This document shows, one piece after another, positions 1 through 22,340 of a stretch of DNA of 34,236 nucleotides. This stretch comes from a bacterium (GTDB taxonomy: Bacteria; Patescibacteriota; Minisyncoccia; Phycocordibacterales; CAIZLB01): NCBI GenBank assembly GCA_043718245.1, contig JAYSWB010000054.1, forward strand, positions 1-34,236, read 5' to 3'. The notes beneath the pieces were generated by a model that was given only the letters and a program-made list of their open reading frames with translations, was not told the DNA's origin and did no database searches. Each line of letters opens with the position of its first letter. The stretch's first letter is position 1. The position numbers and the translations under genes were made by a program.

Positions 1-93
1 CTCGAATACTACAACAGCAAACGACTACATCTCGGCATCAAACTGAAAACCCCAATGCAATTACTAGCAAAGTGCGTCCAAGGTGTTGACTAG
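1..93 (+). mobile_element. C-terminal fragment of an IS481/IS3-like (rve integrase core) transposase, truncated by the window edge
   Basis: Frame 1 reads LEYYNSKRLHLGIKLKTPMQLLAKCVQGVD*, matching the YN-x2-R-x-H-x5-TP motif at the end of DDE integrase-core transposases; not in the ORF track. Confidence 0.6.
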
Positions 94-102
94 ATTACGG
101 GG

Positions 103-5896: not shown

Positions 5897-5920
5897 TTTT
5901 ATTGTACTATACGGCTACTT

Positions 5921-6607
5921 ATGGATTTTTCAGTTTTCGAAAAAAGCATCAATATTAAGTTCAAAGACCCCGAGCTTTTAAAGCAGGCGTTTACTCACCG
6001 CTCATATTTGAATGAGCACAAGGGTTCCAAAATGGAACATAACGAACGTCTCGAATTTTTAGGAGATGCGGTTTTAGAATTAGCTGTAACAGATTTCCTT
6101 TATAAAAAATTTCCTAAAAAAAGCGAAGGGGAATTGACCGCGTACAGATCGGCGCTTGTGAATTCTACAACTCTTGCGACAGCTTCAGAAAAACTTAATA
6201 TGAATTCTTTTCTCCTCCTTTCAAAAGGGGAATCAAAAGACACTGGGCGTGCCCGCCAATTTATTTTAGCAAATACTTTTGAATCGGTTCTCGGGTCAAT
6301 TTACCTCGATCAGGGATATGATGTATCAGAAAAGTTTGTTTCAGAAAATCTTTTCCCAATGCTTGATGAAATCCTTCACACAAAATCTTTTATAGATGCC
6401 AAGAGTCAATTTCAGGAACGTTCTCAGGAAAAAGTAGGTATTACACCTGTTTACAAATTGGTAAAAGAAGCCGGACCCGATCACGGCAAGGTATTTACTG
6501 TCGGTGTCTACATTGATGGAGAAATGATTGCTACAGGTGATGGAAAATCTAAACAAGATGCGGAACAGGAGGCGGCGAAGAAGGCGCTGTCTATTAAAGG
6601 ATGGTAG
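5921..6607 (+). CDS. rnc: ribonuclease III
   Basis: AFTHRS, NERLEFLGDAVL signature, C-terminal dsRBD. Confidence 0.98.
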   Translation: MDFSVFEKSINIKFKDPELLKQAFTHRSYLNEHKGSKMEHNERLEFLGDAVLELAVTDFLYKKFPKKSEGELTAYRSALVNSTTLATASEKLNMNSFLLLSKGESKDTGRARQFILANTFESVLGSIYLDQGYDVSEKFVSENLFPMLDEILHTKSFIDAKSQFQERSQEKVGITPVYKLVKEAGPDHGKVFTVGVYIDGEMIATGDGKSKQDAEQEAAKKALSIKGW

Positions 6608-6647
6608 GATTTTTTTGATTTTTTCTGTTAGAATAAAAGCATATTTT

Positions 6648-8909: not shown

Positions 8910-8914
8910 GTTAC

Positions 8915-9202
8915 TCACCCAAACAAATACGAATGACTGCCTATATCCGCCAATATTAAAATTAACATCTCTTCCTCTATTTTATAGACTAAAAGCAAGT
9001 CGCCCTGTATATGACACTCCCTATGTCCTGCATATTCTCCCCACAATGCGTGGTCTCTGAATCCTGTATCTAATTTCTGTCCCAAAGTGAGTCTCAAAAT
9101 TGTATCTTCTACTTCCTGAAAAACTTCAGGTTTAACTTTCCCTGCACGTTGCAATCGTCTAAATGATCTATCATATTTTTTTGTTCTTTTTACTTGATAC
9201 AT
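8915..9202 (-). CDS. yafQ: YafQ-family mRNA interferase toxin
   Basis: RDHALxGxYxGxRECHI, DLLLVY and GSHSYLF motifs. Confidence 0.92.
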   Translation of the reverse strand: MYQVKRTKKYDRSFRRLQRAGKVKPEVFQEVEDTILRLTLGQKLDTGFRDHALWGEYAGHRECHIQGDLLLVYKIEEEMLILILADIGSHSYLFG

Positions 9203-9464
9203 TAGGTAAAGTTAAGAAATCTGCCATTGCCTCTTTTGCTGTGTTGTATGTCTTCCCATACTTCAGCGCCCATGCCACCTCCTTGTCCCATTCTGCCCTG
9301 ATTTGCTTCGGATTTCTCTTCGGTGTGAAGGGAAGTCCATTCTCTACAATAACCTGAGAAAGAAAAGTTTTAATTGCAGAAGTCATATCTAAACCAAGCT
9401 TGGATAATATTTTTGCTGAGCTGTTTTTAATTTTTGGATCTATACGTATGTTTAGTGTAGTCAT
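9171..9464 (-). CDS. dinJ: RelB/DinJ family antitoxin
   Basis: LNIRID...LGLDMTSAIKTFL...GLPF, upstream of yafQ. Confidence 0.9.
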   Translation of the reverse strand: MTTLNIRIDPKIKNSSAKILSKLGLDMTSAIKTFLSQVIVENGLPFTPKRNPKQIRAEWDKEVAWALKYGKTYNTAKEAMADFLTLPNVSSKKNKKI

Positions 9465-9507
9465 GTAACAAGTATAGACGTTGTACTTACATTGTCAATA
9501 CAGACGT
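9465..9507 (-). promoter_or_regulatory. sigma70 promoter of dinJ-yafQ with probable operator repeats
   Basis: Minus strand TTGACA-16-TATACT ending 6 nt before the ATG; AGACGTT direct repeat and TGTA-ct-TACA palindrome overlap it. Confidence 0.7.
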
Positions 9508-10170
9508 TTACTCTACAATATACCCACGTCCGGGTACTGTTTTAATCAAATTTGCTCTGCCCCCGTCCAGTTTTACTCGTAGATTCCTAACATGAGCCTC
9601 GATTGTATTTGAAAATGGGTTACTATCATTGTGCCAGACACTTTCATTTATATATCCTCGGCTGACAACTCTGCCTCGGTTTCTTGCAAAACATTCAAGG
9701 AGCATAAATTCCTTTCTTGTTAAGTAAATATTTTTTCCCTTTCGAGTGACGCTCTGCCTTGTAATGTCCAAACCAATATCATCAATATCCAAAGTTAAAC
9801 CATTAATTCCTTGCGGGCGACGAGTAACTGCTCTGATGCGTGCCAAAAGTTCATTAAATGAAAAAGGTTTTTGTAAATAGTCATCAGCACCAGCCTCGAG
9901 AAGTGCTATTTTCTCGGGGACCCTGTCGCATACAGAAATCATTATAATGGGAGCATGTTTGTTAGCGTCGCGTACTTCTTTGCAAACCTGGAGACCACTT
10001 CTTCGAGGAAGCATGTAGTCCATGATAATTAAGTCATAGTAGTTTGTACGAGCAAGATACGATCCATCTTCGCCATTATCAACGCAATCAACAGTAAAAA
10101 GTTCACTTTCTAAATTTTCTCGTAAAGTTTCTCTAATATCGTGGTTGTCTTCAACCAAGAGAATTTTCAT
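9508..10170 (-). CDS. OmpR/PhoB-family response regulator
   Basis: KILLVED, phospho-acceptor MDYMLP, GADDYLQKPF, winged helix ending TVPGRGY. Confidence 0.95.
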   Translation of the reverse strand: MKILLVEDNHDIRETLRENLESELFTVDCVDNGEDGSYLARTNYYDLIIMDYMLPRRSGLQVCKEVRDANKHAPIIMISVCDRVPEKIALLEAGADDYLQKPFSFNELLARIRAVTRRPQGINGLTLDIDDIGLDITRQSVTRKGKNIYLTRKEFMLLECFARNRGRVVSRGYINESVWHNDSNPFSNTIEAHVRNLRVKLDGGRANLIKTVPGRGYIVE

Positions 10171-10256
10171 GTTTTTATGTAATTATTATATTAAATAACT
10201 ACAATTTATCAACTACAGATGAAGGAAAGCTTAAGAAAACCTCTATTTATCCCCAA

Positions 10257-10742
10257 TTAGAGACTTTTGACCCTTAATTTCGTCTGTCTCTCCTTGTCTA
10301 CCTTTGGGAGTCGTACAGTTAGAAGGCCCTGATTTTCAAGTGCCTCTGCTCGTTCGATGTCTACCTCATGGGGTAAAACGATACTTCTAGAAAATGTTCC
10401 CCAGTAGAGTTCTTTATGAAAATAGTCTTGATCTGACACCTCGCTCTCTTCTTTTCGACTGCCTTTGATGGTCAAAATGTCTCGTGAAAGGGAAATTTCA
10501 ACATCTTCACGCTTTACACCAGGAATCATAGTCCTCACAATGACATGCGATGCCGTTTGATATACGTCCAATGCCAGTTCGCCTTCACCGGCTTGCTCTT
10601 CAAGCCATGTAGATGAAATACCAGAGGAACCACTTTGCTTTGTTAAGTGTTTTTTATGATCGTGCTCTTCAACCTCTTCAATTTCATCGTCAATAATGAC
10701 GCTACCTGTTAATCTTTCAAATAATGATCTTTTCTTTTTCAT
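10257..10742 (-). CDS. small heat shock protein (Hsp20/alpha-crystallin)
   Basis: LDVYQT, IPGVKREDV, GTFSRSIVLP, GLLTVRLPK, terminal LRV. Confidence 0.94.
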   Translation of the reverse strand: MKKKRSLFERLTGSVIIDDEIEEVEEHDHKKHLTKQSGSSGISSTWLEEQAGEGELALDVYQTASHVIVRTMIPGVKREDVEISLSRDILTIKGSRKEESEVSDQDYFHKELYWGTFSRSIVLPHEVDIERAEALENQGLLTVRLPKVDKERQTKLRVKSL

Positions 10743-10748
10743 GCTTTT

Positions 10749-11483
10749 TTAGAAGTTTTTAATCTTTTTCACGCGCTCGAGACTTATCGTTAAAAGAATG
10801 ACCAAAACCCAGACTGATAAGAACACAGGAAGCGTATTTTCTTTGTCGTTGTTTATTATAAAAAAATTAAACATAGAATGCAAGGCAACTGCGATGAATA
10901 AACCTGCACAGAGGGCAAAGAATTTTTTAGTCTTTGAAGCGTAGAACGTCAGTCCAATGCAAAGTGCAATGACCCCAGAGGCAATAAAATGAAGTAGCGA
11001 GGCGCCCATAAAACGCATAGCGGCTGCATTTATAGCTGTAATTGCTTCTCCGCGAAGTAGGGGTCCTAATAAAAGGATAGTATTTTCCATCGCAGAAAAC
11101 CCCAAAGAAGCGGTTGTCATATAAATAAATGCATCAATTGGGTGAAGAAATGAAGCGTGTTTAAAAGCCGTAAAGCGCGCAGCCAGATACTTTGTCAGTT
11201 CCTCCCAGAAAGCCCAGATGGTTAATGCAACAATACCACCGGCAGCGAAAGTGGGCACAAAAAACTTTCCAAAATAAATCGTCAGTTGTTGAAGCGGAAA
11301 TACCACAAACACTCCGGCCATACCAACCATGAAGGTAAAGATAATTAAACTGCGGGGCTCGTGATGATCGTTTTCCTCGTGCATCCAAAACCAAAGCCAT
11401 AAAAGAGCAGGTAAAATACCACCCATGAGGGCATAGAGAAAGACATGAAGTTTTAATGCGCAGATTATGCTTGTACAGGCCAT
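10749..11483 (-). CDS. prsW: PrsW-family intramembrane metalloprotease (true start may be downstream)
   Basis: HEPR, EExxK, GFSAMEN, H and HxxFN motifs within transmembrane helices. Confidence 0.9.
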   Translation of the reverse strand: MACTSIICALKLHVFLYALMGGILPALLWLWFWMHEENDHHEPRSLIIFTFMVGMAGVFVVFPLQQLTIYFGKFFVPTFAAGGIVALTIWAFWEELTKYLAARFTAFKHASFLHPIDAFIYMTTASLGFSAMENTILLLGPLLRGEAITAINAAAMRFMGASLLHFIASGVIALCIGLTFYASKTKKFFALCAGLFIAVALHSMFNFFIINNDKENTLPVFLSVWVLVILLTISLERVKKIKNF

Positions 11484-13609
11484 TTTTGAACGATAAGCAT
11501 ATTATCGTCTATTTTGACAGATTTTGGAAGGAGCGACCAGAGCTCTTCGGTGATAAAAGGCATGAATGGGTGGAGGACAGTGATCGAGTCTTTTAGGAGG
11601 AGGGCGAGGAGGGCTTGGCGGGACTCTTTGTTTTCTGATAATAAGACTTTCTTACTGTCCTCAATTAACATATCAGCTATATCGTTCCAAATGTAATGAT
11701 AGATTTTTTCAGAAGCAAGGTGATATCTGTATTCGTTTATATCTTTAGTTATATCTTTTAGAAAATTATTATGTAGAAGTATAAATGTTTTATCTGTGTC
11801 ATTTAGAGTTTTTTCTCCATCGTAATCTTCCAGAGCTGTCAAAATAAACCGCGTAATATTCCACAGCTTATTTCCAAAGTTTCTATTACCTTTAATTTTG
11901 TCTTCAGAAACCTTCATGTCCGTTCCAGGAGCGGTTCCTAAAATAAGGGTAAGTCTTGTCGCGTCCATTCCAAACTTATTTGCCATATCGATCGGATCAA
12001 TTCCATTCCCCAGGGATTTTGAAAACTTTACACCTTTTGCATCGCGAACAATTCCGGTAATTAAAACTTTCTTAAATGGAATTTGATCAAGAGCGTAACC
12101 TGTCATCATAATCATTCTCGCAACCCAGAAGAAAAGGATTTCATAAGCAGTCACAAGCAGGTTTGTCGGGTGGAAAACTTTCAAATCTTTCGTGTCATTT
12201 GGCCAGCCCATTGTAGAAAAAGTCCAAAGACCAGAAGAAAACCAGGTATCAAGTGTGTCCTCGTCTTGTTTCCAATCAGAGCCTTCAGGTGCGTCAATTC
12301 CGCAGTATATTTCCTCACCTTTATACCAAACGGGGATTCGGTGACCATACCAAATTTGCCTTGAAATACACCAGTCTTTCAAATTGTCGATCCAGTGGAA
12401 ATAGGTTTTATCGAAATGCGTCGGCATAATTTCAATTTTTCTATCAGCAACTGCAGAGCGCATAATGTCTTTTAGGGTTGTTGTGTGTCCGTTTTTTGTG
12501 AAATCTTTGTTTACTGCGACGAACCACTGTAATTTTGGAAGTGGCTCTACGATTCCACCAGTTCTTTCAGCGGTAGAGATGTTTTGATTAATTTCTTTTT
12601 CTTCAATCATCAGGTTTTCAGATTTAAGCCATTCAACAATCGCGGTGCGTGCATCTGTGGTTTTCTTATTCAAAATTCTTTCATCACCAACGGTCATTTT
12701 GGAGTACTCGTTTATAACTTGTTTGATAGGTAGATTGTGTCGTTCTGCCATCATGAAATCGATTTGGCTATGAGCAGGGGTAACGCCAAGTGCACCAGTT
12801 CCAAACTCTGGATCCACTTCTTTATCCGCAATGACTTTTACTGTAACTGGTACTCCGCAAAAATCGAATGAAAATTCCTGGCCAATATACTTTTGGTAGC
12901 GTGCGTCATCGGGGTGAACAGCAACGGCGGTGTCACCAACTTTAGTCTCAGGTCGAGAGGTAGAAATGGAAATAGGGAAGTCTTTTGAATATTTGAAAGT
13001 ATACAAAACCGCTTTGCGTTCTTCGTAAACAATTTCATCGTCCGAAATTGTAGTTTGACCTTTCGGGTCCCAATTGACTACTCGAAATCCTCGGTAGATC
13101 AAACCATCGTCGTACATTTGTTTGAAAATAGTTCGAACTGCGAGATTTCTTTTATCGTCCAAAGTAAAAGCTTCGCGCGACCAATCACATGAGGCACCGG
13201 TTACTTTTAATTGAGAGACAATCGTGTCGTGACTTTGCTGGGCGAATTCCTTAATTCGCTGCAACATTTCTTCGCGACCTAAGTCATGGCGAGATTTTCC
13301 TTCCTTTTTCTGAATGTCTTTTTCTACTTTTGCTTGGGTTGCAATTGCCGCGTGATCAGTTCCAGGAATCCATAATGCTTTCTTTCCGTTCATTCGATTA
13401 AAGCGGATAGCGATGTCTTGGATTGTCGCACCAAGTACATGACCCAAATGCAGGGTGCCTGTTACGTTTGGAGGGGGGAGGATGATGGTGTAAGTCTCAT
13501 CTCCTTTTAAGTTGTCAGGATTAAAAAGTCCGCTTTTTTCCCAAGCTTCGTAGATGCGTTTTTCAGTGTCCTGAGGGTTGTAGGGTTTTAAAAGTTTTTC
13601 GGGAATCAT
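11465..13609 (-). CDS. valS: valine--tRNA ligase (short form, 714 aa)
   Basis: PPPNVTGTLHLGH, GTDHAAIATQ, DWCISRQIWYGH, DTLDTWFSS, KFSKS. Confidence 0.97.
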   Translation of the reverse strand: MIPEKLLKPYNPQDTEKRIYEAWEKSGLFNPDNLKGDETYTIILPPPNVTGTLHLGHVLGATIQDIAIRFNRMNGKKALWIPGTDHAAIATQAKVEKDIQKKEGKSRHDLGREEMLQRIKEFAQQSHDTIVSQLKVTGASCDWSREAFTLDDKRNLAVRTIFKQMYDDGLIYRGFRVVNWDPKGQTTISDDEIVYEERKAVLYTFKYSKDFPISISTSRPETKVGDTAVAVHPDDARYQKYIGQEFSFDFCGVPVTVKVIADKEVDPEFGTGALGVTPAHSQIDFMMAERHNLPIKQVINEYSKMTVGDERILNKKTTDARTAIVEWLKSENLMIEEKEINQNISTAERTGGIVEPLPKLQWFVAVNKDFTKNGHTTTLKDIMRSAVADRKIEIMPTHFDKTYFHWIDNLKDWCISRQIWYGHRIPVWYKGEEIYCGIDAPEGSDWKQDEDTLDTWFSSGLWTFSTMGWPNDTKDLKVFHPTNLLVTAYEILFFWVARMIMMTGYALDQIPFKKVLITGIVRDAKGVKFSKSLGNGIDPIDMANKFGMDATRLTLILGTAPGTDMKVSEDKIKGNRNFGNKLWNITRFILTALEDYDGEKTLNDTDKTFILLHNNFLKDITKDINEYRYHLASEKIYHYIWNDIADMLIEDSKKVLLSENKESRQALLALLLKDSITVLHPFMPFITEELWSLLPKSVKIDDNMLIVQKWPVQA

Positions 13610-13786
13610 GTGGTAAATAGTAGCAATTATAGGGATATTAGGGAATTTGACAATTTAAATATATATGGTATACTGTATATGTAAAAGTACATTAAAACTT
13701 GGTGTTCTATGTTAGTTTATTTTGCTAAAAAGGAGCTGAAGGATTCGGCTCTTACTTTGCAAAATAAACCCAACTATACACACAAC

Positions 13787-14029
13787 ATGAAAAACATAAT
13801 TGCACTGATTGTCCTCATTATCCTTCAAGCCACGGCAAAAGCCTATGAGCTAATTCCGGATTCAGGGGAAGAATACCTTCCTCGGGAAATACAGGAGGGG
13901 ATAATGTATTTCGACCGCATGGTCGTAATACTGGTAGCAATACCACTATTCGGAATACCCATTGCTATGGGTATAATCGAACTCACTCTGTGGGTTCAGA
14001 AAAAAAGGTTGAAAAAAATAGGACAATGA
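13787..14029 (+). CDS. small hypothetical membrane protein (signal peptide plus one TM helix)
   Basis: In-frame ATG 13787 gives MKNIIALIVLIILQATAKA; TTGACA-16-TATACT promoter upstream and terminator downstream. Confidence 0.6.
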   Translation: MKNIIALIVLIILQATAKAYELIPDSGEEYLPREIQEGIMYFDRMVVILVAIPLFGIPIAMGIIELTLWVQKKRLKKIGQ

Positions 14030-14083
14030 AGTCCCGCAAGAGAGAGCTCCCGCAAGGACCTCCACTTGCGGGGCTTTTTCTTT
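14029..14083 (+). terminator. intrinsic terminator between convergent genes
   Basis: AAGTCCCGCAAG...CTTGCGGGGCTT followed by TTTCTTTT; the CCCGCAAG arm occurs twice. Confidence 0.7.
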
Positions 14084-15288
14084 TACAACCCCAAATTCCC
14101 ACTCGCCCTAAAATCCTTTTCCAAACTTTCTCCCTTACTTACAAACCGCATATAACCCGCCACCGCAATCATAATCGCATTATCAGTCGAATGCTCAATC
14201 TGTGGAACAAAGAGATTAATATCAATAAAATCTAACGCAGTCATTTTTTGAAAAGCCTCTCGAATATTTTCATTCGCAATGACACCACCACCGATAATAA
14301 GCGTGCGCACATTGTTATCAATCATTGCCGCTCGAGTTTTCTTCACCAACACCTCGGTCGCAGAATCCTCAAACTCTCTCGCAATATCTTCTTTATCAGT
14401 TTCGGAAAGTAAAGACATTTTTTTAACTAAATACAAAACCGCCGTTTTCAGTCCCGAAAAAGAAAAATCATAATCTTTTGTATTCAACATCGGACGAGGT
14501 AAAACTATGTCGGTATTTTTTTCTCTTTCTCTAGATTTTTTAGCTAGTAAAGAAATCTTTGGTCCACCTGGATATGGAAGTCCCAAAATTCTCGCAACCT
14601 TATCAAACGCCTCACCGACAGCATCATCCCTTGTTCTTCCAATAACAGAATATTCGTGCCAACTTTTTATTAAAACCAATTCAGTGTGTCCTCCAGAAAT
14701 TAAAAGTGCCAAAGCAGGGAAGGTGATATTTTGCGCACTATCAACCAACACCGAAACAATATGCCCCTCCATGTGATTTGTCGGAACCACTGAAATGTTC
14801 CAAATCGTTCCTAATGTTTTCGCAAAGTTTATTCCAACCCAAAGTGCAGGCTCGAGTCCCGGGCCTTGTGTAACGGCTATCACATCAATATTTGGCTTTT
14901 CAATTGTTTCGAAAAGCTTGATAACATCCTCGGCCATTTCATGCTCCATTTTTAGGGAGGTTAAAATACTAGATTTTTCTTCTTCCGAAAAAGTAGATTT
15001 CTTTTCTTTGTATAAACCTGCTTTTTTCAGCGCTTCAACAAAAATCGGCGTAATATTTTTACTATGTTCCCGTTTAGCAAGTGCTGGAAAAACACCACCG
15101 TGTTTAGCGTGGATTTCGATCTGAGATTGGAGGGCATTACCTAAAACCTTAATTTCAGGACCGTTATTTGAGGTATCAATTACGTCGCTTCCATTATAAA
15201 TAGCGGCACGTTCTCCAGCCTCAACGATACAAACCGCCGTCTCGTCACAGCTCGTTTCTATGCCTAAAACTATGGTTTTTTTACTCAT
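14083..15288 (-). CDS. tsaD: tRNA threonylcarbamoyltransferase TsaD
   Basis: LGIETSCDET, GPGL, NHMEGH, ISGGHT, DDAVGEAFDKVAR, FSFSGLKT, TDNAIMIA; likely start 15288. Confidence 0.97.
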   Translation of the reverse strand: MSKKTIVLGIETSCDETAVCIVEAGERAAIYNGSDVIDTSNNGPEIKVLGNALQSQIEIHAKHGGVFPALAKREHSKNITPIFVEALKKAGLYKEKKSTFSEEEKSSILTSLKMEHEMAEDVIKLFETIEKPNIDVIAVTQGPGLEPALWVGINFAKTLGTIWNISVVPTNHMEGHIVSVLVDSAQNITFPALALLISGGHTELVLIKSWHEYSVIGRTRDDAVGEAFDKVARILGLPYPGGPKISLLAKKSREREKNTDIVLPRPMLNTKDYDFSFSGLKTAVLYLVKKMSLLSETDKEDIAREFEDSATEVLVKKTRAAMIDNNVRTLIIGGGVIANENIREAFQKMTALDFIDINLFVPQIEHSTDNAIMIAVAGYMRFVSKGESLEKDFRASGNLGL

Positions 15289-15305
15289 GGGATCTCTAAT
15301 ATATA

Positions 15306-15920
15306 CTATTTTGTGCAAATCCAAAGGCCGTCACCTGTCGTGAGTTCTTCAACTTCCCATCCATTTTTAACTAGGTATACTTTAAAAGTTTCTAAGCGTT
15401 CTTTCATGTCAGTGGTGTTATCAACTATTAAAAAAGTTTTATCTGAAATTGCAGAATAAAGTGCCTCTAAATATTGAATAAAATTGGCACGGTTCGCGTC
15501 GAAAAACAATAAATCTACCTGCTTTACCTCATCAGCAATTTTCGGTATTGCAGTTTCAATTTCTTCTTCAAAAACTTCTACATTAATATTTGCTTTCTTA
15601 AAATAATCTTTAGCAATGTCCGATTTATACTTCCTCTTTTCAATTGTGCGTAGCTTTCCTTGGGTTTTTTTAAGTGCCAAGCCCATCCATACACCTGAAT
15701 ATCCAATACCCGTCCCAAGCTCAATAACATTCTTAATATTATTCTTCAAAATGAAATCATGTAAAAATTCTCCAGTTTCCGGAGAAACTGGCCATGGTCT
15801 GTCACCATAAACACCATCTTTATCAGTTAGATGTTGTCCTATTTCAATCTGAGAAGCAGAATACCAAACGAGTGTTTTGGATAGCTTTTCCAGTTCTTCT
15901 AAAATTTCTTTTCCTTCCAT
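15306..15920 (-). CDS. class I SAM-dependent O-methyltransferase (YrrM/TrmR-like)
   Basis: VIELGTGIGYSG motif I, LFFDA, IVDN; ATG 15920 follows the upstream stop. Confidence 0.85.
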   Translation of the reverse strand: MEGKEILEELEKLSKTLVWYSASQIEIGQHLTDKDGVYGDRPWPVSPETGEFLHDFILKNNIKNVIELGTGIGYSGVWMGLALKKTQGKLRTIEKRKYKSDIAKDYFKKANINVEVFEEEIETAIPKIADEVKQVDLLFFDANRANFIQYLEALYSAISDKTFLIVDNTTDMKERLETFKVYLVKNGWEVEELTTGDGLWICTK

Positions 15921-15921
15921 C

Positions 15922-16143
15922 TTAACCTCTAGTGTAGTCAACGGGTGTAGTTGATGATGGCGCTTCTTCTTCTATACTTGGAAAACAGATATCACCAGTC
16001 ATGATGTCAAATTTGTCTCCTGGTGCACAAGATACTAGTGGGGGAGTTTTCACTGCTGTCATTGATAGGTAGGCCCAGATAATAAGAGCAGAAACTACGA
16101 TGACACCGAGAATCAGTATAGAGTTGGTTTTGATGTTTTTCAT
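15922..16143 (-). CDS. small membrane-anchored hypothetical protein
   Basis: N-terminal TM helix, CAPGDKFDIMTGDIC motif; TGcTATACT 6 nt before ATG 16143. Confidence 0.65.
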   Translation of the reverse strand: MKNIKTNSILILGVIVVSALIIWAYLSMTAVKTPPLVSCAPGDKFDIMTGDICFPSIEEEAPSSTTPVDYTRG

Positions 16144-16233
16144 TTGTACAGTATAGCACAAATTCCTAATTTAGTAAGGGAACTACCTTATCTTCGTCTA
16201 TTATAGGTATAACAAATAATAAGTTAAAAAAAC

Positions 16234-16599
16234 ATGAATTCATCATACACCTCATCAAGTACCAAGCCTCTTTATCGAGGAACTCAAATAGTTTGGTATA
16301 TTCTCGGTATTATAGAGGCCCTACTAGCGTTTCGATTTATTCTAAAGCTCCTTGGGGCAAATCCAGGAGCTGGCTTCACCAATTTTATTTACGGAATCAC
16401 CTATGTCTTTGCTAATCCATTTTTGTCGGTTTTTCGAAGTACCGAGATCGTTTCAGGTAGCATTTTCGAATGGACTTCACTTCTCGCGATGGTTGTATAT
16501 TGGATTGTGGCAATGGGTATAATCAATTTATTCTTTATGGGAAAGACAGTTTCAACACCTGAAGCAGCTGCCAAGATGGAAGTTGAAGAGAAGAGATAG
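16234..16599 (+). CDS. YggT-family membrane protein
   Basis: RFILKLLGANP...FIYGIT...PF...LLAMVVY pattern. Confidence 0.8.
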   Translation: MNSSYTSSSTKPLYRGTQIVWYILGIIEALLAFRFILKLLGANPGAGFTNFIYGITYVFANPFLSVFRSTEIVSGSIFEWTSLLAMVVYWIVAMGIINLFFMGKTVSTPEAAAKMEVEEKR

Positions 16600-17067
16600 T
16601 TAAAACTCGATTTTACCTTTAGGTGAAAATAATTCCACTGAACTGATGGTGGGGTATTGAGTGAGGGTGTCATTGAGGACGGCCATTAGGTGTCCGCTCT
16701 CGCAACTGCTAAGCGCACTGAGGGGTTTTCCTTTAGGGTCCATGTCGCTTTCAAGTGTTACTTTGGCGACACTATTTGTAATAGTAACTGATTTGTAAAC
16801 TCCATATCGAGCAAGTTCTTCATTGAAAAGTATTTTTAAAGATGCATCTGCAACGGCGGTTGTTTTTGGGACTTTGTATGTCACAGGGTAGGTAACTCTA
16901 CAGTCGCTTGTTTTCGCGACTTCTTTATTCTGGATGTACAAAGTTAGGACTGTTTGGTCTTTTGATGTCGCGGGGGGTGTTACTTTTGGTTTTGACTGAG
17001 AGGTGGTAAAGATTACTAATAAGATAGTAATGATGAATATGATGAGGGCGATGTTTAGTTTTTTCAT
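16600..17067 (-). CDS. secreted/anchored protein with probable GerMN-like domain
   Basis: N-terminal TM helix; TTAVADASLKILF and SSC...TLTQYPTISSV resemble GerMN. Confidence 0.6.
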   Translation of the reverse strand: MKKLNIALIIFIITILLVIFTTSQSKPKVTPPATSKDQTVLTLYIQNKEVAKTSDCRVTYPVTYKVPKTTAVADASLKILFNEELARYGVYKSVTITNSVAKVTLESDMDPKGKPLSALSSCESGHLMAVLNDTLTQYPTISSVELFSPKGKIEF

Positions 17068-17116
17068 ATGTGAAGTATAGCAAAGTATGAATTTTCAATC
17101 ATGTTATAATGACACC

Positions 17117-17485
17117 ATGAAAACAGCCACTCGTCTGAATCCACCTTTGTGGGAAGCCTGTAAAAAAGAAGCGGTATATAAAATGGGAAAGTTCTCTGCC
17201 CGCGCTATGCAGTACGCGGTTACTTTGTATAAAAAAAGAGGAGGGAAATATTCAGGGGTGAAAAGTCCAAAGAATAGTCTGACACTTTGGACCAAGGAAG
17301 ACTGGGGATATACAGGTGAAGAAAAGCGTAGTAGGTATTTGCCAAAGAAGGCTAGGGAGAGTTTAACGAGGGGAGAGAAAATTGCCACAGACAGGGCAAA
17401 GAATGCAGGGACGAGGGCGAATAAACAGTGGGTTCCGCAACCGAAAAAGATTGCGAAAAAGACGGCGAAATTTAGGTTGAAGTAG
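17117..17485 (+). CDS. basic hypothetical protein, DUF5872-like (virus-associated family, from recall)
   Basis: SARAMQ...YKKRGGKY, W-x3-DW, RYLPKKA, KQWVPQPKKIA; TGtTATAAT 6 nt before ATG 17117. Confidence 0.7.
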   Translation: MKTATRLNPPLWEACKKEAVYKMGKFSARAMQYAVTLYKKRGGKYSGVKSPKNSLTLWTKEDWGYTGEEKRSRYLPKKARESLTRGEKIATDRAKNAGTRANKQWVPQPKKIAKKTAKFRLK

Positions 17486-17486
17486 C

Positions 17487-17508
17487 GGTGAGCCCAGTAT
17501 GCCTCGAA
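17487..17508 (+). repeat. left attachment junction, degenerate copy of the tRNA-Glu 3' end
   Basis: ggtgagcccagtatgcctcgaa vs ggtgaccccacagagaatcgaa at 22267-22288, ungapped, with both end blocks conserved. Confidence 0.72.
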
Positions 17509-17604
17509 TGGAACACCATGGAAAACTATGTGTTGAACTGGAAACAAGCAATGCAAACGATTGATCCTTCATATTTAATACTTAAGACGAGCTATGTATC
17601 ATAG
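17488..17604 (+). other. orphan in-frame C-terminal tail of the serine recombinase, joined to it only in the excised circle
   Basis: Open frame VSPVCLEWNTMENYVLNWKQAMQTIDPSYLILKTSYVS* starts at the GTG of the att core, in phase with recombinase codon V553 (22268-22270). Confidence 0.65.
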
Positions 17605-17719
17605 GATATTTACAACAAAGAGGTGTGATAGAAGATACCTCAGAGTGTATGGAACAGTAGTTAGTATGAGTATATCGAGCGAAATTAAATCTGCTGAACC
17701 AGTGCAGTAAATCAAAACT

Positions 17720-18193
17720 ATGAATAACATCACACTTACCAAATCAGGTCCTGAGTCACTTCTTACAGAAGATTTGTCCTTACGAATAAGGACTCTCCTT
17801 TTACAAGGCAAGAAGATCAAAGAAATCCAGAAATGGTGCGGTATTAAACCTGGCACATGGGATAAGTGGTATTTTGAGAACCATAAGGATTTCAGGCAGA
17901 AAATTACTAATTGGAGGAAGGAACGTTTTCTCCAAAAATCCATTTCTAACATTGAAGAAATGCTTGAAATGGAAACAAGTCACGAAGTAAGACAAGGAGA
18001 ATACTCGGCTCGTATTACTGATCCGAGGCTCCTTAAAATCAAGCTGGAAGCCTCTAAGTTCGTATTAGAGAATTTCAAATCTGAAAAGGATAAACAAGCT
18101 ACCGAGCTTTCTGCTGACCGAATGAGGCGAGTTTTGGAGATATTTGAGATGAATAGGAGAGGTGTCTATACTCAAGACACCTTGAAGGAATAG
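17720..18193 (+). CDS. HTH protein, terminase small subunit-like
   Basis: N-terminal HTH (IKEIQKWCGIKPGTWDKW) followed by a helical region; 157 aa; inside the element. Confidence 0.5.
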   Translation: MNNITLTKSGPESLLTEDLSLRIRTLLLQGKKIKEIQKWCGIKPGTWDKWYFENHKDFRQKITNWRKERFLQKSISNIEEMLEMETSHEVRQGEYSARITDPRLLKIKLEASKFVLENFKSEKDKQATELSADRMRRVLEIFEMNRRGVYTQDTLKE

Positions 18194-18194
18194 T

Positions 18195-18740
18195 TTATGA
18201 ATTTCTTATTTCAGAAATCTTTGAATACAGATTTTGTGCATTCTCAATTGAGTAAAATGCTGTTGGCATATTATAGAAATTTCTCATCATAGGCCATCCA
18301 GGAATGTAAAAGTTTATAACTCCTTTTGAACCAAAAATAATGTCTCCTTTCCCTGAAGATTTAACATTAAGCTGTATGTCACCTAATTTTTTAAGGTCAA
18401 CAGATTTAAGTTCAATGCTTGATACGCCTTGTTGAACAAGAGCTCTTTTGTCTGTCAAAACATAATAAAGATTATTATATTCTTTATTTGCAACAAAAAA
18501 TCTACCAATGGTAATATATAGACCCATTAGGACGAAAAAACCTCCGAAGATAAGAAAGAAAAAGGGCGCACCACTTACCCATGCAGTAAATTCCCAAAAC
18601 AAAGCAAATGCAAACCAGACAAATGTAAAAGGTATGATAAACCAAGACGGTCCTTGAAATAAGAAAGATTTTTTATCAGGTTTTCCCTCCCAAATTACCT
18701 TTTCATCTGGTAATAGTTGGCTCTTAATAAATTCCGTCAT
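18195..18740 (-). CDS. membrane protein with bacterial PH-like domain
   Basis: LLPDEKVIWEGKP, two TM helices, YVLTDKRAL...GDIIF pattern. Confidence 0.75.
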   Translation of the reverse strand: MTEFIKSQLLPDEKVIWEGKPDKKSFLFQGPSWFIIPFTFVWFAFALFWEFTAWVSGAPFFFLIFGGFFVLMGLYITIGRFFVANKEYNNLYYVLTDKRALVQQGVSSIELKSVDLKKLGDIQLNVKSSGKGDIIFGSKGVINFYIPGWPMMRNFYNMPTAFYSIENAQNLYSKISEIRNS

Positions 18741-18742
18741 GT

Positions 18743-19276
18743 TTATTTATTAGGGAAAATATCATCATCAGTTCCGTATTCTCCATCAGGCCCTAGGCTT
18801 CTTAGGTCATAGCTTGAAGCATCCTTAGAAACTTCATAATGAAATGGCTTCATATAATGATCGCTAGGCCATACTTGGTAACCCGCATCTTTGAGTTCAG
18901 CTAGGGATTGAGGATATTTACCTGTTTTTGTCTTGTAGAGCTCAAGTAAGCCTGCATCTTGTGTAAACAATTGAGCACTCAATTCTTTTTTAGGTTGTTC
19001 AAATGGGCCACCTTTTGCGACAAAACCAAAATAGAATAGAGAGCCATACAGAGATACAGTCACAATTATTCCCAAAATACCTAAGATAATTCCTGCGGTA
19101 GAAAACCCCTTACCAGAATAAAGTCCCTTCTTAATTTTTGACTTTGCCACTATTCCAAAAATTATTGCTAACAAACCAAGCAAAAGCCCTACTAAAGGTA
19201 TGAATGAGGTAATTCCCAATACTAAACTTGCTGTGGCTAATCCTGACTTTGGTAGGTTTGTTGATTGTGGCTCCAT
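18743..19276 (-). CDS. DUF4190 membrane domain fused to a T2SS GspG-like C-terminal domain
   Basis: SGLATASLVLGI...G-x-G-x3-AGIILG, then LELYK...GKYP and YDLRSLGPDGEYGTDDDI; likely start 19276. Confidence 0.78.
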   Translation of the reverse strand: MEPQSTNLPKSGLATASLVLGITSFIPLVGLLLGLLAIIFGIVAKSKIKKGLYSGKGFSTAGIILGILGIIVTVSLYGSLFYFGFVAKGGPFEQPKKELSAQLFTQDAGLLELYKTKTGKYPQSLAELKDAGYQVWPSDHYMKPFHYEVSKDASSYDLRSLGPDGEYGTDDDIFPNK

Positions 19277-19434
19277 TTTGATGGCGTTATTAATATGTTC
19301 AGTAGTATGACACAATATGTAAAAAAATGCATGCTGAGCTAACTACATATGGATTACTGCACTAGTGCACCAGATTTTATTGTTAATTTCCTTTAATTTA
19401 CATATGATAACTATGCACTCATGGTATATAAATC

Positions 19435-19848
19435 TTGAACGCCTCTATGTTAAATCCATCCCAATTTTCACCTCATAAACTTAAAGAAATACAACAAGTT
19501 TTGAATGCTGTTTTGGACCACTTTTCTACTGCTAATGTATCTCAGAAGTTCAATAAAATATCTATATCTAACCTTAATGGAGTGTCCGAAGTGGAGGCTA
19601 CAAATGTCCTCAAGGAAATTAAAGGCGTTAGTGTTTTGAATGAATTTTACAAGAAGAAATTCGCTGGTATAGAGCTTGTATCTCCCAACCCAGAGAAATG
19701 GATTAAGCGAGAGATGGATGAAAATGGACTTGAAAAGACCGATCTCGGTAACTACCTATTTGTAAAAGTAGAAAATCAGGCGGTGCTTGATGAAATTAAA
19801 AACACCCTAAAAGGAGTTGATGAAATTTTAGGAGCCAAGATGATGTGA
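19435..19848 (+). CDS. hypothetical protein (start may be ATG 19447)
   Basis: 137-codon ORF in AT-rich element DNA, no recognisable motif. Confidence 0.6.
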   Translation: MNASMLNPSQFSPHKLKEIQQVLNAVLDHFSTANVSQKFNKISISNLNGVSEVEATNVLKEIKGVSVLNEFYKKKFAGIELVSPNPEKWIKREMDENGLEKTDLGNYLFVKVENQAVLDEIKNTLKGVDEILGAKMM

Positions 19849-20153
19849 TTAAGTCAGTTTGTATAAGTAGGGATGATGGTATTCATCTCAGGAGTAATCC
19901 TATGAAAAGATATGAGGCGACGAAGAAGAGACTCGATCTCATTTTTTGCTTTTCTCAACAGACTTCATGGAGATTAGATGAGTTACAATTGGAAACAGGT
20001 TATTCCTTTGAAGGTGATACAAGTAAAGCAATAAAGAAAATAAATAGTCTTTTCAGAGAAAAAGTTGATCAATTAAATGACCTGATAATTCATACTGATT
20101 CATCAGGGTATAGACTAAACAAAGCTAAATATAATTTTGAATTTTTGGAGTAG
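19845..20153 (+). CDS. hypothetical protein, possible winged-helix DNA-binding domain
   Basis: GTG start overlaps the previous stop, AGGAG upstream; KAIKKINSLFREK...GYRLN resembles a wHTH end. Confidence 0.55.
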   Translation: MIKSVCISRDDGIHLRSNPMKRYEATKKRLDLIFCFSQQTSWRLDELQLETGYSFEGDTSKAIKKINSLFREKVDQLNDLIIHTDSSGYRLNKAKYNFEFLE

Positions 20154-20182
20154 ACCGTTACTAGGTGTTAATAACTCTTGTT

Positions 20183-20207
20183 GAAGTGCTAATTTAAGGC
20201 ACTTTTT
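20183..20207 (+). terminator. probable intrinsic terminator
   Basis: AAGTGCT-aatttaa-GGCACTT then TTT. Confidence 0.5.
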
Positions 20208-20293
20208 GCATATATGTTACCTAGCAAGCACCCAATTACGACCCGACCTATATTTGCGAGAATTGAGTAGTTGCTTATCTTGAACACAACCCA

Positions 20294-20363
20294 ATAAGCC
20301 TATTGCTTACTTGGCAGGTGCCGTAAGGCGTTCAAGAACCTGCCCAGTAAAGAGTAGGTTTAT
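20294..20363 (+). ncRNA. structured candidate antisense RNA (C4/CI-like) upstream of the recombinase operon
   Basis: Nested stems ATAAGCCTAT/GTAGGTTTAT, TTACT/AGTAA, GGCAGGT/ACCTGCC; inner GCC-GTAA-GGC hairpin; unpaired GTTCAAGA complementary to 19433-19440 and 20278-20285. Confidence 0.6.
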
Positions 20364-20390
20364 GTCCAAGATGGACAGCAACAGGCTGTC

Positions 20391-20615
20391 ATGGACTCAC
20401 TACTTAATCCCCAATCACTCATAGAACCACAAAAAGTCCCCTCTGAAGGATGTGTGTCTTTTGAGGAGTTCAAAAATACACTTGGTAAAACTGCCAATGA
20501 TTATTCAGATGATGAAATAGAAAAAATAAGAGTATTATTCGATTGCTTAGCGGAGGTAACTTTTGACAGTTGGCTCAAAAAAGTAAACAGCGGTATTATT
20601 AAAGAATTATCATGA
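20391..20615 (+). CDS. small acidic hypothetical protein translationally coupled to the recombinase
   Basis: 74 aa; stop overlaps the recombinase start (ATGA). Confidence 0.65.
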   Translation: MDSLLNPQSLIEPQKVPSEGCVSFEEFKNTLGKTANDYSDDEIEKIRVLFDCLAEVTFDSWLKKVNSGIIKELS

Positions 20616-22294
20616 TACCAAATGTTTCAAAAAACTGTGTAGTTCAATGTCGAGTAAGCTCTTTAAAACAATCTCAAGAAGGAGAAAGTTTAGAAATGCA
20701 GGAGAAATCAATGAGGGCATTCATAGCTCTGAAAGGCTGGAAAATTGTTCCAAATGATAAGGTGTGGTCAACCGCAATTTCAGGAAGAAAAACTGACCGT
20801 GCAGACTTTGAGAATATTCTTGATTTCATTAAGGCACATCCTGGACTAGTCGATTATTACATTTTTCGATCGATTGATAGGTTTACAAGAGCAGGAAGTG
20901 AAGAATACTCTCGAATGAAGCGTGAACTCTCTAAGTATGGAGTAGAGATGATTGATACTTATGGAGTCATCCAACCAACTAAGAACACATTGGCAGATTT
21001 TAATATGGAGTATGAATGGAGCAAGTATTCTCCTAGTGAGATAGCAGAGATTGTGATGGCGACTCAAGCCAAATCAGAGGTCACTAATATCCTCACACGA
21101 ATGATCGGACAAGAGATAAGTCTGACTCAGCAAGGTTACCGCACTCGAAGACCCGCAGACGGTTATGTAAATGAAAAGATTTATGTAGAAGGAAAGAAGA
21201 AAACTATTCAAGCTTCATGTCCCAACAGATCAAAATTTTATATAGCTATGTTTGAACTGCGTGCTCAAGGGTTAAGTGATCCAGAATGTGTAAGCAGATT
21301 AAATGCAATGGGATATACCTCTCCAATGCAAAACAAATGGAATAAGGATCACACTAAAATCCTTGGAAGAACAGGTGGGGCACCACTCACGGTCAAACAA
21401 TTCCAAAAGATCATGGAAAACACAATCTATGCAGGAGTGGTATGTGAGAAATGGACGCATTACAAGCCGATTAAAGCTCAATACAGCGGTTTAGTTTCGA
21501 TTGAGACATGGAACCAAGCAAATAGAGGCAAATTGGCTCTTATGAAGGATACTGAGGGCGGTCTTGAGTTAGTGAAAAGACAAAGCATCGGTAAATCACG
21601 AGAAAGATATAATCCAGAATTTGCATATAAATTTATAGGATGTCCGCTTTGTGGAAAGAAAATGCTTGGCAGTGCTTCAACTGGTAAAGGTGGAGTTCCT
21701 CGACCTGCATATCACTGTTCTCGTGGTCATGAGCGATATGGCGTAAAGAAATCAGAGTTCGAGGAGTCAGTAAGCAAATATGTTAAGAGCTTGAAATTCA
21801 AACCAGAGCTCATGGATGCTCTCGAGCTTACCTTTATGAAAAAGTATAGACAGCGTGAGAAAGAAATAGTTAAAGCATCAGGCGATATTCATCAAGCAAT
21901 TGCGAACCTTGAACTCGAACAGGCTTCTAAGCTAGAAGTTATTGAGACTACAAGGAGTGCGGTGGTGAGAGAAAAGTTTGAACAGGAAGTTGATGCTCTT
22001 GAAGCAAAAATAAAGGAAGCACGAAAAGAACGATTAAAAATTCAGATCACTAGAGACGATATTAAGTCATTTGTGCAAGAGGCAAAAAACATAATGGAAC
22101 ACCCAGCTGAAATCCTATTACAGCCAAGTAATCCAAGAGCAAAAGAGAAACTATTTGAGTTGTTCTTCGAGAAGATGCCCACCTACTCAGATATAGTTAA
22201 TGGAACACCAAAATTATCCTTGATATTCCAGCTTTCTTCAGACTTCAAACCTACTAACGAAACATTGGTGACCCCACAGAGAATCGAACTCTGA
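20612..22294 (+). CDS. large serine recombinase/integrase
   Basis: Catalytic CRVSS, SG and IDRFTR motifs, recombinase domain, zinc ribbon CPLC...YHCSRGH, coiled coil; last codons overlap tRNA-Glu on the opposite strand. Confidence 0.94.
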   Translation: MIPNVSKNCVVQCRVSSLKQSQEGESLEMQEKSMRAFIALKGWKIVPNDKVWSTAISGRKTDRADFENILDFIKAHPGLVDYYIFRSIDRFTRAGSEEYSRMKRELSKYGVEMIDTYGVIQPTKNTLADFNMEYEWSKYSPSEIAEIVMATQAKSEVTNILTRMIGQEISLTQQGYRTRRPADGYVNEKIYVEGKKKTIQASCPNRSKFYIAMFELRAQGLSDPECVSRLNAMGYTSPMQNKWNKDHTKILGRTGGAPLTVKQFQKIMENTIYAGVVCEKWTHYKPIKAQYSGLVSIETWNQANRGKLALMKDTEGGLELVKRQSIGKSRERYNPEFAYKFIGCPLCGKKMLGSASTGKGGVPRPAYHCSRGHERYGVKKSEFEESVSKYVKSLKFKPELMDALELTFMKKYRQREKEIVKASGDIHQAIANLELEQASKLEVIETTRSAVVREKFEQEVDALEAKIKEARKERLKIQITRDDIKSFVQEAKNIMEHPAEILLQPSNPRAKEKLFELFFEKMPTYSDIVNGTPKLSLIFQLSSDFKPTNETLVTPQRIEL

Positions 22295-22340
22295 TTACTG
22301 CCTTGAAAAGGCAATGTCCTAACCGTTAGACGATGGGGCC
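22266..22340 (-). tRNA. tRNA-Glu (TTC)
   Basis: GGCCCCATCGTCTAACGGTTAGGACATTGCC-TTTTCAA-GGCAGTAATCAGAGTTCGATTCTCTGTGGGGTCACCA folds as a cloverleaf with encoded CCA. Confidence 0.96.

Follow-up and report, generated by a model that had tools for sequence, protein, structure and literature searches.

What becomes of a recombinase gene when the attachment site on which its product acts lies inside its own reading frame? This question is raised by an integrative element of 4.78 kb (17487-22271), situated at the extreme 3' end of a tRNA-Glu(UUC) gene in contig C50 of the 711,510-bp, 63-contig genome (G000) of an uncultured bacterium; the whole contig, 34,236 bp in length, was analysed and is referred to here as the window. 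The recombinase in question is a large serine recombinase (LSR), encoded by the open reading frame (ORF) 20612-22294 on the forward strand. An earlier note on this DNA had proposed that the att site lies within this gene, so that the integrated element would encode an enzyme of 560 amino acids (aa) and the excised circle one of 590 aa. The observation on which the proposal was built is real, and the structural interpretation, an att site within the LSR gene with a 560-aa integrated and a 590-aa circular form, is in our judgement very likely correct. It is supported by the homology of the detached C-terminal tail, by another element on contig C45 of the same genome, by the recurrence of the arrangement in relatives, by the points at which flanking homology ends and by a contig (L105) in which gene and tail are joined.

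A recombinase gene with two endings

The LSR ORF runs into the antisense of the tRNA-Glu gene (22266-22340, reverse strand; ARAGORN, ttc), which is the integration target and provides the B' arm, and ends in ETLVTPQRIEL* just as the earlier note had it. Residues 1-553 are native and the last seven (TPQRIEL) are antisense tRNA, the overlap with the tRNA 3' end amounting to 29 nt, stop codon included, and covering the antisense of the acceptor and T arm. The LSR codons TTG GTG furnish the tRNA-encoded CCA, and the body of the tRNA is intact. The attR core GGTGA (22267-22271, +) falls on LSR codons L552-V553-T554 and is the antisense of tRNA nucleotides 71-75. The same sequence, in the same codon phase, makes up the attL core at 17487-17491 (+), with host DNA on its left and the P' arm on its right. 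Both GGTGAGCCCA-N7-TCGAA at 17487 and GGTGACCCCA-N7-TCGAA at 22267 are present, 4780 bp apart. Read in frame from the GTG at 17488, the left-hand sequence continues as V followed by 37 codons (SPVCLEWNTMENYVLNWKQAMQTIDPSYLILKTSYVS) and is closed by a TAG at 17602-17604, leaving a detached reading frame (17488-17604, +) with the pattern L.WNT.E..VL.WK..F. The lengths given in the earlier note, 560 aa for the integrated form and 553 + 37 = 590 aa for the joined form, agree with the homology of this tail.

Its domains place the window enzyme among the large serine recombinases. Pfam Resolvase (PF00239, 9e-12) covers residues 11-117, the Recombinase domain, that is DNA-binding domain 1 (PF07508, 3.9e-6), covers residues 207-305, and the protein matches the phage integrase family phrog_95 at 5.6e-36. 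The catalytic S16 is invariant across 29 homologues, and the LSR profile matches the catalytic domain of the TP901-1 integrase (3bvp, E 1.3e-9). No match to Pfam Zn_ribbon_recom was obtained at E<=0.01; a Cys/His cluster (C344, C347, H368, C369, H373) is invariant among the LSR homologues, and residues ~400-500 look coiled-coil-like by eye. All recognised domains precede codon 553. A placement of the tail on solved LSR structures by sequence was dropped, only the catalytic domain giving a match.

Homology and coding constraint of the detached tail

Homologues of the window LSR numbered 396 at E<=1e-10, and the best 120 of these 396, which are 46-94% identical, were sorted by their endings. In these 120 an invariant '...GTPKLS..F.LSS......LV' precedes a divergence into two ending types. 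Sorted by motif, 66 have antisense-tRNA endings (LVTLRGIEPRF.., LVTLQRIEL and alike) and 40 carry a conserved native tail (LV.P..L.WNT.E..VL.WK.VF), the other 14 being truncated or of another kind. What is read from 17488 (SPVCLEWNTMENYVLNWKQAMQ...) falls into the conserved-tail group. A hidden Markov model (HMM) was built from the 40 native homologue tails, all close relatives of the window LSR and none from G000, and was applied to the complete 711,510-bp genome, translated in six frames. Its best match was window 17476-17601 (+) at E 6.3e-10, followed by C45 254-412 (+) at E 3.6e-7; the next best stood at E 0.43, leaving these two as the only significant ones. Judged by this homology, the 37 codons from 17488 are the true C-terminus of the window LSR.

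The window tail can be aligned both with the 40 intact homologue tails and with 16 other detached tails, and the 17 distinct detached tails are all open for 30-39 codons. Over codons 10-25, beyond the att arm, their summed entropy at codon positions 1, 2 and 3 is 17.65, 14.15 and 22.65, respectively. Past ~29 bp the residues E11, V/I14, W17, V20 and F21 are kept and third codon positions vary. DNA that is untranslated in the integrated state would lose such a codon pattern, and the elements must therefore regularly pass through the joined state.

Recurrence of the split gene in relatives

The relatives of the window LSR retrieved by homology come from Parcubacteria, Saccharibacteria and other candidate-phyla bacteria. 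A total of 161 related loci was compared, 81 from genome and viral collections and 80 from metagenomes, with flanks of up to 10 kb; the counts are not fully independent because some contigs occur in both sets (e.g. L036 and L181). The LSR gene ends within an antisense tRNA in 86 of the 161 loci, and in 35 of these 86 a detached tail is located upstream, 4.3-10.6 kb away. A conserved tail at the far junction of homologues near tRNAs, which the earlier note had suggested looking for, is thereby found in this many loci. All 75 tail matches in these loci, detached or attached, are on the LSR strand.

The genome and viral loci comprise 48 antisense-tRNA ends, 13 cuts by a contig end, 5 intact tails and 15 others, and the metagenome loci comprise 38 antisense-tRNA ends, 7 cuts, 19 intact tails and 16 others. 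The targets in the former set are tRNA-Glu (34), Lys (5) and His (4), with one each of Gly, Tyr, Arg, Val and Phe, and in the latter Glu (18), Trp (13), Lys (3), Arg (3) and Tyr (1). This amounts to Glu 52, Trp 13, Lys 8, His 4, Arg 4 and Tyr 2, plus Gly, Val and Phe once each, for all 86. An upstream detached tail is present in 21/48 of the genome and viral and in 14/38 of the metagenome tRNA-ending loci, and where more than 5 kb of upstream sequence is at hand the rates are 20/38 and 13/19. Elements at tRNA-Lys, Gly and Val possess cores of their own (TTGTCCGCC, TGGTGCA, GTGCG, TGTGGGCGA), again in phase.

The joined form was encountered as well. Contig L105, of 5,018 nt, begins and ends with the same 43 nt; closed at these ends it measures 4,975 bp and encodes an intact 591-aa LSR with the native tail. 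Loci L062 (tail matches at 2991 and 7300) and L061 hold a tandem array of two element copies at tRNA-Glu(ctc), and the internal LSR copy of L062 is rejoined to a tail, constituting an attP-like junction inside the chromosome.

One further locus, L028 (~3770 and 11790-11885), differs in its layout. A tRNA-Ile(tat) lies 130 nt past the LSR stop, and 22 nt of its 3' flank recur as a direct repeat at the left junction. The LSR itself has a tRNA-like ending peptide, and ARAGORN finds no tRNA there. The site may have decayed or be of a more complex kind.

Another element in the same genome and a second LSR family

The lower-ranking of the two significant tail matches belongs to an element of ~6.4 kb on contig C45. 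Its LSR (5067-6758) is 41% identical to the window LSR and ends in the antisense of a tRNA-Glu(ctc) gene (6732-6804); the detached tail (254-412) lies upstream of it on the same strand, with the core at ~305-308. The right junction reads ..TCT GTG ACC CTA.. and the left ..TTT GTG AAC TCA.., so that the two share the core TGTGA at an identical codon phase; joining them would give a tail of the sequence VNSLYLEWNTIQSEVIRWHEAF... The cargo contains ORFs of 375 aa (P-loop ATPase-like), 355 aa and 141 aa (helix-turn-helix-like), and the dcw cell-division cluster is situated beyond the tRNA-Glu(ctc).

At the tRNA-Glu(ttc) that the window element occupies, the sister genome G002 carries a 573-aa LSR that overlaps the tRNA by 62 nt, in a different frame, and gives no BLASTP match to the window LSR at E 1e-4. 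Among the best 120 homologues of this enzyme, 87 have antisense-tRNA endings, 12 have native tails (..P.AWLSEL....I.....L..) and 21 end otherwise. An HMM of the 12 second-family tails located a detached tail 8.8 kb upstream on the LSR strand (E 8.5e-11), and this tail (..DPIAWLSELTKQRDYIK..) is in phase at the core GTGACCCCA. The element, found in locus L015 (G002:C7) at ~6034-14850, measures 8.8 kb and has a cargo including a methyltransferase and a 962-aa ORF. As a second, unrelated family is built alike, the split-gene design is not peculiar to one lineage.

Traces of similar sequence were seen at two other places. At ~L015 5075 there is a further P'-arm-like TTGGTGAGCCA, which may be the scar of an older element, and C44 1697-1852 of G000, matching the second-family tail HMM weakly (E 0.0023), may be a relic of an element of that family.

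Geometry of the att sites and a repeated 9-mer

The sequence at 17487 had been described in the earlier note as a degenerate copy of the junction. The copy is present, though not as a piece of tRNA that was displaced; what lies there is the P' arm, and its likeness to the tRNA B' arm arises because the element arm imitates a tRNA arm bound by the same protein. In the alignment GGTGA...TCGAA given there, the core is indeed shared, whereas TCGAA is not the conserved feature; this is TGGAAC, located 5 bp further out. Across 18 distinct left/right junction pairs at tRNA-Glu, GAAC occupies +22..+25 in the P' arm versus +17..+20 in the tRNA arm: the conserved TGGAAC of the P' arm starts 20 nt from the core T, and the TCGAAC of the tRNA arm (22284-22289 in the window) starts 15 nt from it. 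TCGAAC is a T-arm motif common to tRNAs. Islands of tyrosine integrases leave long displaced tRNA fragments; a long fragment of this kind was looked for at the element end and none was found within the window. In two published accounts, the outer zinc-ribbon-domain motif of LSR sites is placed 5 bp nearer the centre in attB than in attP (PMC11722253, bioRxiv 10.1101/2025.05.02.651858). Window-type elements show this 5-bp attP/attB offset typical of LSRs on the P'/B' side, and their P and B arms display weak symmetry only, with a weak ATT[CT] at ~-26..-23 noted by eye.

The cores shared by the 18 pairs are 3-9 nt long and always include TGA in the same codon phase. TGA is the smallest core common to all of them, and the crossover would be placed within it, at 17489-17491 (+) in the window. 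Shared cores this short are to be expected of serine recombinases, which exchange strands at a 2-bp overlap, and the crossover dinucleotide would be TG or GA; by an acceptor-stem reading, the TGA is the antisense of tRNA nucleotides 71-73. With the crossover at this minimal TGA, the tRNA body stays host-encoded and intact. The host-side arms of the 18 pairs often include a tRNA trailer and its terminator hairpin.

The P' arm contains the 9-mer TGGAACACC at 17509-17517 (+; codons W-N-T), 20 nt from the core T, a candidate recognition motif for the zinc-ribbon domain. The same 9-mer recurs in direct orientation within the LSR gene at 22095-22103 (+; codons M-E-H-P), 174 nt ahead of the core, and at 22201-22209 (+; codons x-G-T-P), 68 nt ahead of it. 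These three are all on the forward strand, no inverted copy being present, and compare with an expectation of 0.11; none of 100 shuffles reaches three. One DNA word is in this way accommodated in three conserved protein motifs (MEHP, xGTP and WNT) in three reading frames. Among 57 distinct homologous 3' regions with both motifs, TGGAACACC is exact in 55/57 at MEHP and in 57/57 at xGTP, with fixed synonymous choices (GGA, ACA, GAA, CAC); this test of conservation rests on synonymous sites only, because the sequences were chosen by protein motifs and are related. L105 has three TGGAACAC(C) copies at 1438, 1544 and 1632, spaced by 106 and 88 bp, and the same 106/88-bp TGGAACAC spacing is expected from the coordinates of the joined form of the window element. 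An analogous direct repeat, CTTTCAGAACTT, occurs in the second family at the FSEL and LSEL codons. The TGGAACAC copies may be accessory, arm-like sites.

Boundaries of the element and the tRNA-Glu hotspot

The left boundary in relatives, on which the earlier note had let its proposal depend, was followed as far as the data allow, and for both C45 and the window the end of flank homology agrees with the core. In C45, the homology of the left flank with three same-genus genomes stops at a poly-T directly before the core. In the window, G018 is the one relative to have a close copy of the neighbouring ORF 17087-17485 (87% at the protein level), and this copy is homologous at the DNA level up to ~17484, ~3 nt before GGTGA. 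The G+C content is 0.35-0.37 within the element versus 0.40-0.45 in the flanks.

The 3' flank of tRNA-Glu(ttc) is variable in the window (15324-22266) and in G001, G002, G003, G007, G012, G014, G019, G021 and G029. A conserved 413-aa gene (window 14083-15324) is separated from the tRNA by 0.9-9.8 kb, with different genes in each genome, and four genomes of the genus have different cargo in each at both tRNA-Glu genes. This flank is an insertion hotspot. ORF 17087-17485 itself (132 aa), to the left of the element, belongs to the phage family phrog_14910 (E 1.8e-21) and is probably the relic of an earlier insertion.

The target tRNA was also compared between genomes. The tRNA-Glu(ttc) genes of G000 and G002, two genomes that carry LSR elements, have the same sequence, and those of G001 and G003 differ from them in the D loop, anticodon stem and variable loop. 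The flanking NUDIX gene groups G001 and G002 closest, unlike their tRNA-Glu. The identity between G000 and G002 had raised the suspicion of an element carrying most of the tRNA, which was dropped, the crossover mapping to the last nucleotides of the tRNA. At read level the data consisted of Logan contigs of three runs (X1-X3) from one study, whose contig graph breaks inside tRNA-Glu. A 71-nt contig of X1 and X2, corresponding to window 22269-22339, departs from the tRNA-Glu at two positions (T>C at 22299), has a depth of 6.4, equal to that of the organism's contigs, and may represent a second tRNA-Glu copy or a strain variant. Lastly, a repeat of ~100 nt (96-98% identical) is found at four contig ends (window 1-99, C45 1-105, C38 1-105, C49 10788-10888), probably a dispersed repeat that breaks the assembly.

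Gene content of the window element

Between the detached tail and the LSR gene the element carries several small ORFs. The first (17720-18193, +; 157 aa) has no Pfam match and a weak match to phrog_2538 (E 0.003); its product is possibly a helix-turn-helix protein with a weak likeness to small terminase subunits. By eye, from unaligned ORF listings, an ORF whose N-terminal region is similar takes the equivalent position in the C45 element and in L105. It is followed by two ORFs on the reverse strand. The product of one (18195-18740; 181 aa) has no significant family match in Pfam or PHROG profiles, and its sequence suggests a membrane protein. The other (18743-19315; 190 aa) matches DUF4190 (PF13828, 8.9e-15) and is type II secretion protein G (pseudopilin)-like (PF08334, 9.7e-6). 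Two overlapping ORFs of 137 and 102 aa (19435-20153, +) are without family matches. Directly before the LSR gene is a small ORF of 74 aa (20391-20615, +), whose stop overlaps the LSR start (ATGA). Its homologue directly upstream of the C45 LSR is 28% identical over 46 aa (E 2.7e-5), and in L105 a 71-aa ORF overlaps the LSR start in the same manner. The 74-aa product is a candidate directionality factor or regulator.

Proposed mechanism and alternative explanations

The element was very probably inserted by its own LSR at the extreme 3' end of tRNA-Glu(UUC), using an attP placed inside the LSR ORF, 37 codons ahead of its natural stop. The identity of the tail, the break point, the recurrence in two LSR families and the LSR-like geometry of the arms are established, and the precise junctions in many loci together with the self-closing contig speak indirectly for attP x attB integration. 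On integration, strand exchange within the TGA of the shared GGTGA core would divide the LSR gene behind codon V553, leaving by the tRNA the catalytic, recombinase and putative zinc-ribbon parts, which gain seven antisense codons to give the 560-aa form, and moving the native 37-codon tail to the other end of the element, 4.78 kb away. Excision would rejoin the parts and restore the 590-aa enzyme. We infer that the window copy is still mobile. As the joined state is regularly passed through, integration would fall to the 590-residue enzyme and, barring help in trans from an intact copy, excision to the 553+7 enzyme. The tail swap would in this way make the properties of the enzyme depend on the state of the element.

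Several observations weigh against this reading. The DNA repeat by itself is no better than chance: the 22-nt tRNA-end segment scores 15/22 at 17487, equally 15/22 at 10968 and 14/22 at several other sites in the window, and a pattern search giving an expectation of 0 for the repeat is circular, its pattern having been drawn up from the very copies it detects. The Asn codon of W-N-T is AAC in 17/17 detached tails, and this part of the tail conservation is probably a DNA-level constraint on the att arm, the W-N-T codons being conserved in part because the P' arm imitates the tRNA arm bound by the same protein. With the flanks at hand (up to 10 kb) and an HMM from close relatives, no detached tail was found in 51 of the 86 tRNA-ending loci. 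There is no clean empty site for the window locus among relatives; in G001, G002 and G003 other cargo lies between the left flank and the tRNA at both tRNA-Glu loci, and ORF 17087-17485 occurs in only 3/50 family genomes and in other contexts (the G018 and G062 homologues being elsewhere). As to excision, no circle or empty-site junction was seen in the contigs of runs X1-X3, from which rare variants are dropped, so that this result speaks neither for nor against mobility. Contig L105 could be a free circle or a collapsed tandem array, the latter origin being the unfavourable one. LSR genes with intact tails are also found on long contigs of 140 kb-2.17 Mb (L041, L044, L045/L169, L048, L049, L173), a group to which the genome and viral set of 81 contributes 5 loci and the 19 metagenome loci with intact tails contribute several. 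In them a whole gene with an attP-like core sits in a chromosome. On these contigs no second LSR was found in the locus and no antisense tRNA downstream; they are mostly not from candidate-phyla bacteria, those named being from Rhizomicrobium, Verrucomicrobiia, Alphaproteobacteria and Saprospiraceae.

An ORF running into a neighbouring tRNA in a compact genome, followed elsewhere by a chance 37-codon frame, would account for a DNA match equalled at other places in the window, and by our own estimate an open frame of this length is ~8% likely in A+T-rich DNA. Such a coincidence is contradicted by the tail HMM matches, and the recurrence, the coding constraint and the second family oppose it too; it can practically be dismissed. 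Scarcely more credible is that 17488-17601 is tail-like as the leftover of an older, mostly deleted recombinase copy. The hotspot character of the tRNA-Glu 3' flank, with cargo differing between the genomes of the genus, and the phage family of the left-flank gene would suit such an origin, but the homology sets in precisely at the shared core and nothing of a recombinase stands to the left of it, an identical break is seen again in C45 and in 33 further loci with the phase conserved, and in several loci the left side is the tRNA trailer with its terminator. A suicidal design, in which the integrated form is inactive and the element is locked unless an intact copy acts in trans, has a precedent in tyrosine integrases with attP in the gene (PMC7253208), and a tandem array with an intact internal LSR copy does exist (L062). 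However, the detached part makes up no more than ~6% of the protein, a single ORF still holds the catalytic and DNA-binding domains, and the detached tails keep a coding constraint that implies regular rejoining, which makes this design unlikely.

The split may also be neutral, the last codons doubling as the P' arm, with a dispensable tail and 560-aa and 590-aa forms that behave alike. Every recognised domain lies ahead of codon 553, the replacement tails differ in length and sequence according to the target tRNA and are unlikely to be selected, and the W-N-T codons coincide with a DNA motif. On the other hand, E11, V/I14, W17, V20 and F21 are kept as protein beyond the ~25-bp att arm with third positions free, the tail is retained in family members down to ~45% identity, and a different tail is kept in the second family. 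Neutrality is quite possible on this evidence, though we would stop short of calling it probable. The roles suggested for the tail in the earlier note, a directionality switch, an interaction helix or a degron, are hypothetical. The other functional reading, that tail exchange serves as a built-in state sensor of small tRNA-targeting elements in candidate-phyla bacteria, perhaps with the TGGAACAC copies as accessory sites, is put forward tentatively and must be regarded as somewhat doubtful. On this view the circle would be the sole source of the full-length enzyme, which would integrate, and the chromosome the sole source of the tRNA-tailed one, which would excise, perhaps in concert with the small ORF coupled to it in translation. 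The direction of the reaction would then follow from the recombination product itself and not from a separately regulated factor.

Significance and comparison with known systems

Serine integrases are valued for genome engineering as they are simple and one-directional, the reverse reaction needing a separate directionality factor. A family in which recombination rewrites the C-terminus of the enzyme offers an experimental handle on whether the extreme C-terminus can set direction. The design with an att site in the integrase gene is extended from archaeal tyrosine integrases to bacterial serine recombinases, and the detached-tail loci provide precise att sites for at least 35 LSRs at tRNA 3' ends (Glu, Lys, Trp, Gly, Val, Arg). 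The arrangement also explains a common annotation artefact, recombinases with 'GIEPR'-type endings, and points to an abundant class of 4-10 kb integrative elements in candidate-phyla bacteria, with the 3' flank of tRNA-Glu as an insertion hotspot.

In the openly accessible literature searched, which did not extend to subscription journals and supplements and in which an earlier description may therefore have been missed, no account of a serine recombinase with attP in its own ORF was found. The large LSR surveys consulted make no mention of tRNA targets or of att sites within coding sequence, and the literature searched describes neither state-sensing tail exchange nor internal direct 9-mer copies for serine integrases.

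The canonical phage LSRs mostly target protein-coding genes rather than tRNA ends. The window LSR shares with phiC31, Bxb1, A118/LI and SPbeta SprA the order of Resolvase, Recombinase and Cys/His cluster, and the window element, like those of the canonical phage LSRs, has a very short shared core and no long direct repeat. An attP inside the integrase ORF, as in the window, is undescribed for canonical phage LSRs in the papers compared. Going by its title, a 2021 study by Abe et al. has the extreme C-terminus of SprA take part in directionality, a precedent that speaks against a neutral tail. The C-terminus of SprA is not exchanged by recombination, unlike that of the window LSR.

Mycobacteriophage BPs and its relatives likewise have attP in a coding region, the product of which differs between the free and the integrated state (PMC4557955). 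In those phages it is the repressor gene that is split and a tyrosine recombinase that integrates, whereas in the window element the recombinase itself is split. Integration reportedly removes a C-terminal degradation tag from the BPs repressor.

The closest parallel is found in the SSV-type (type I, 'suicidal') tyrosine integrases of archaeal viruses and plasmids (SSV1/SSV2, pTN3, pT26-2), in which, as for the window LSR, attP lies in the integrase ORF, a tRNA is the target and the gene is split to the element ends. In a 2020 paper, disruption of the gene is proposed as a regulator of directionality for the archaeal suicidal integrases, and the design with att in the integrase is called 'so far restricted to archaea' (PMC7253208). 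The SSV-type enzymes are tyrosine recombinases and the window enzyme is a bacterial LSR. Only the last 37 of 590 codons (6%) are detached in the window element, and the large part, unlike in the SSV type, stays an ORF with a new short ending. Inactivity of both halves after integration characterises the SSV type; the large part of the window LSR keeps every recognised domain. As the window enzyme is a serine recombinase, it is a functional analogue, and not a member, of the SSV-type integrases.

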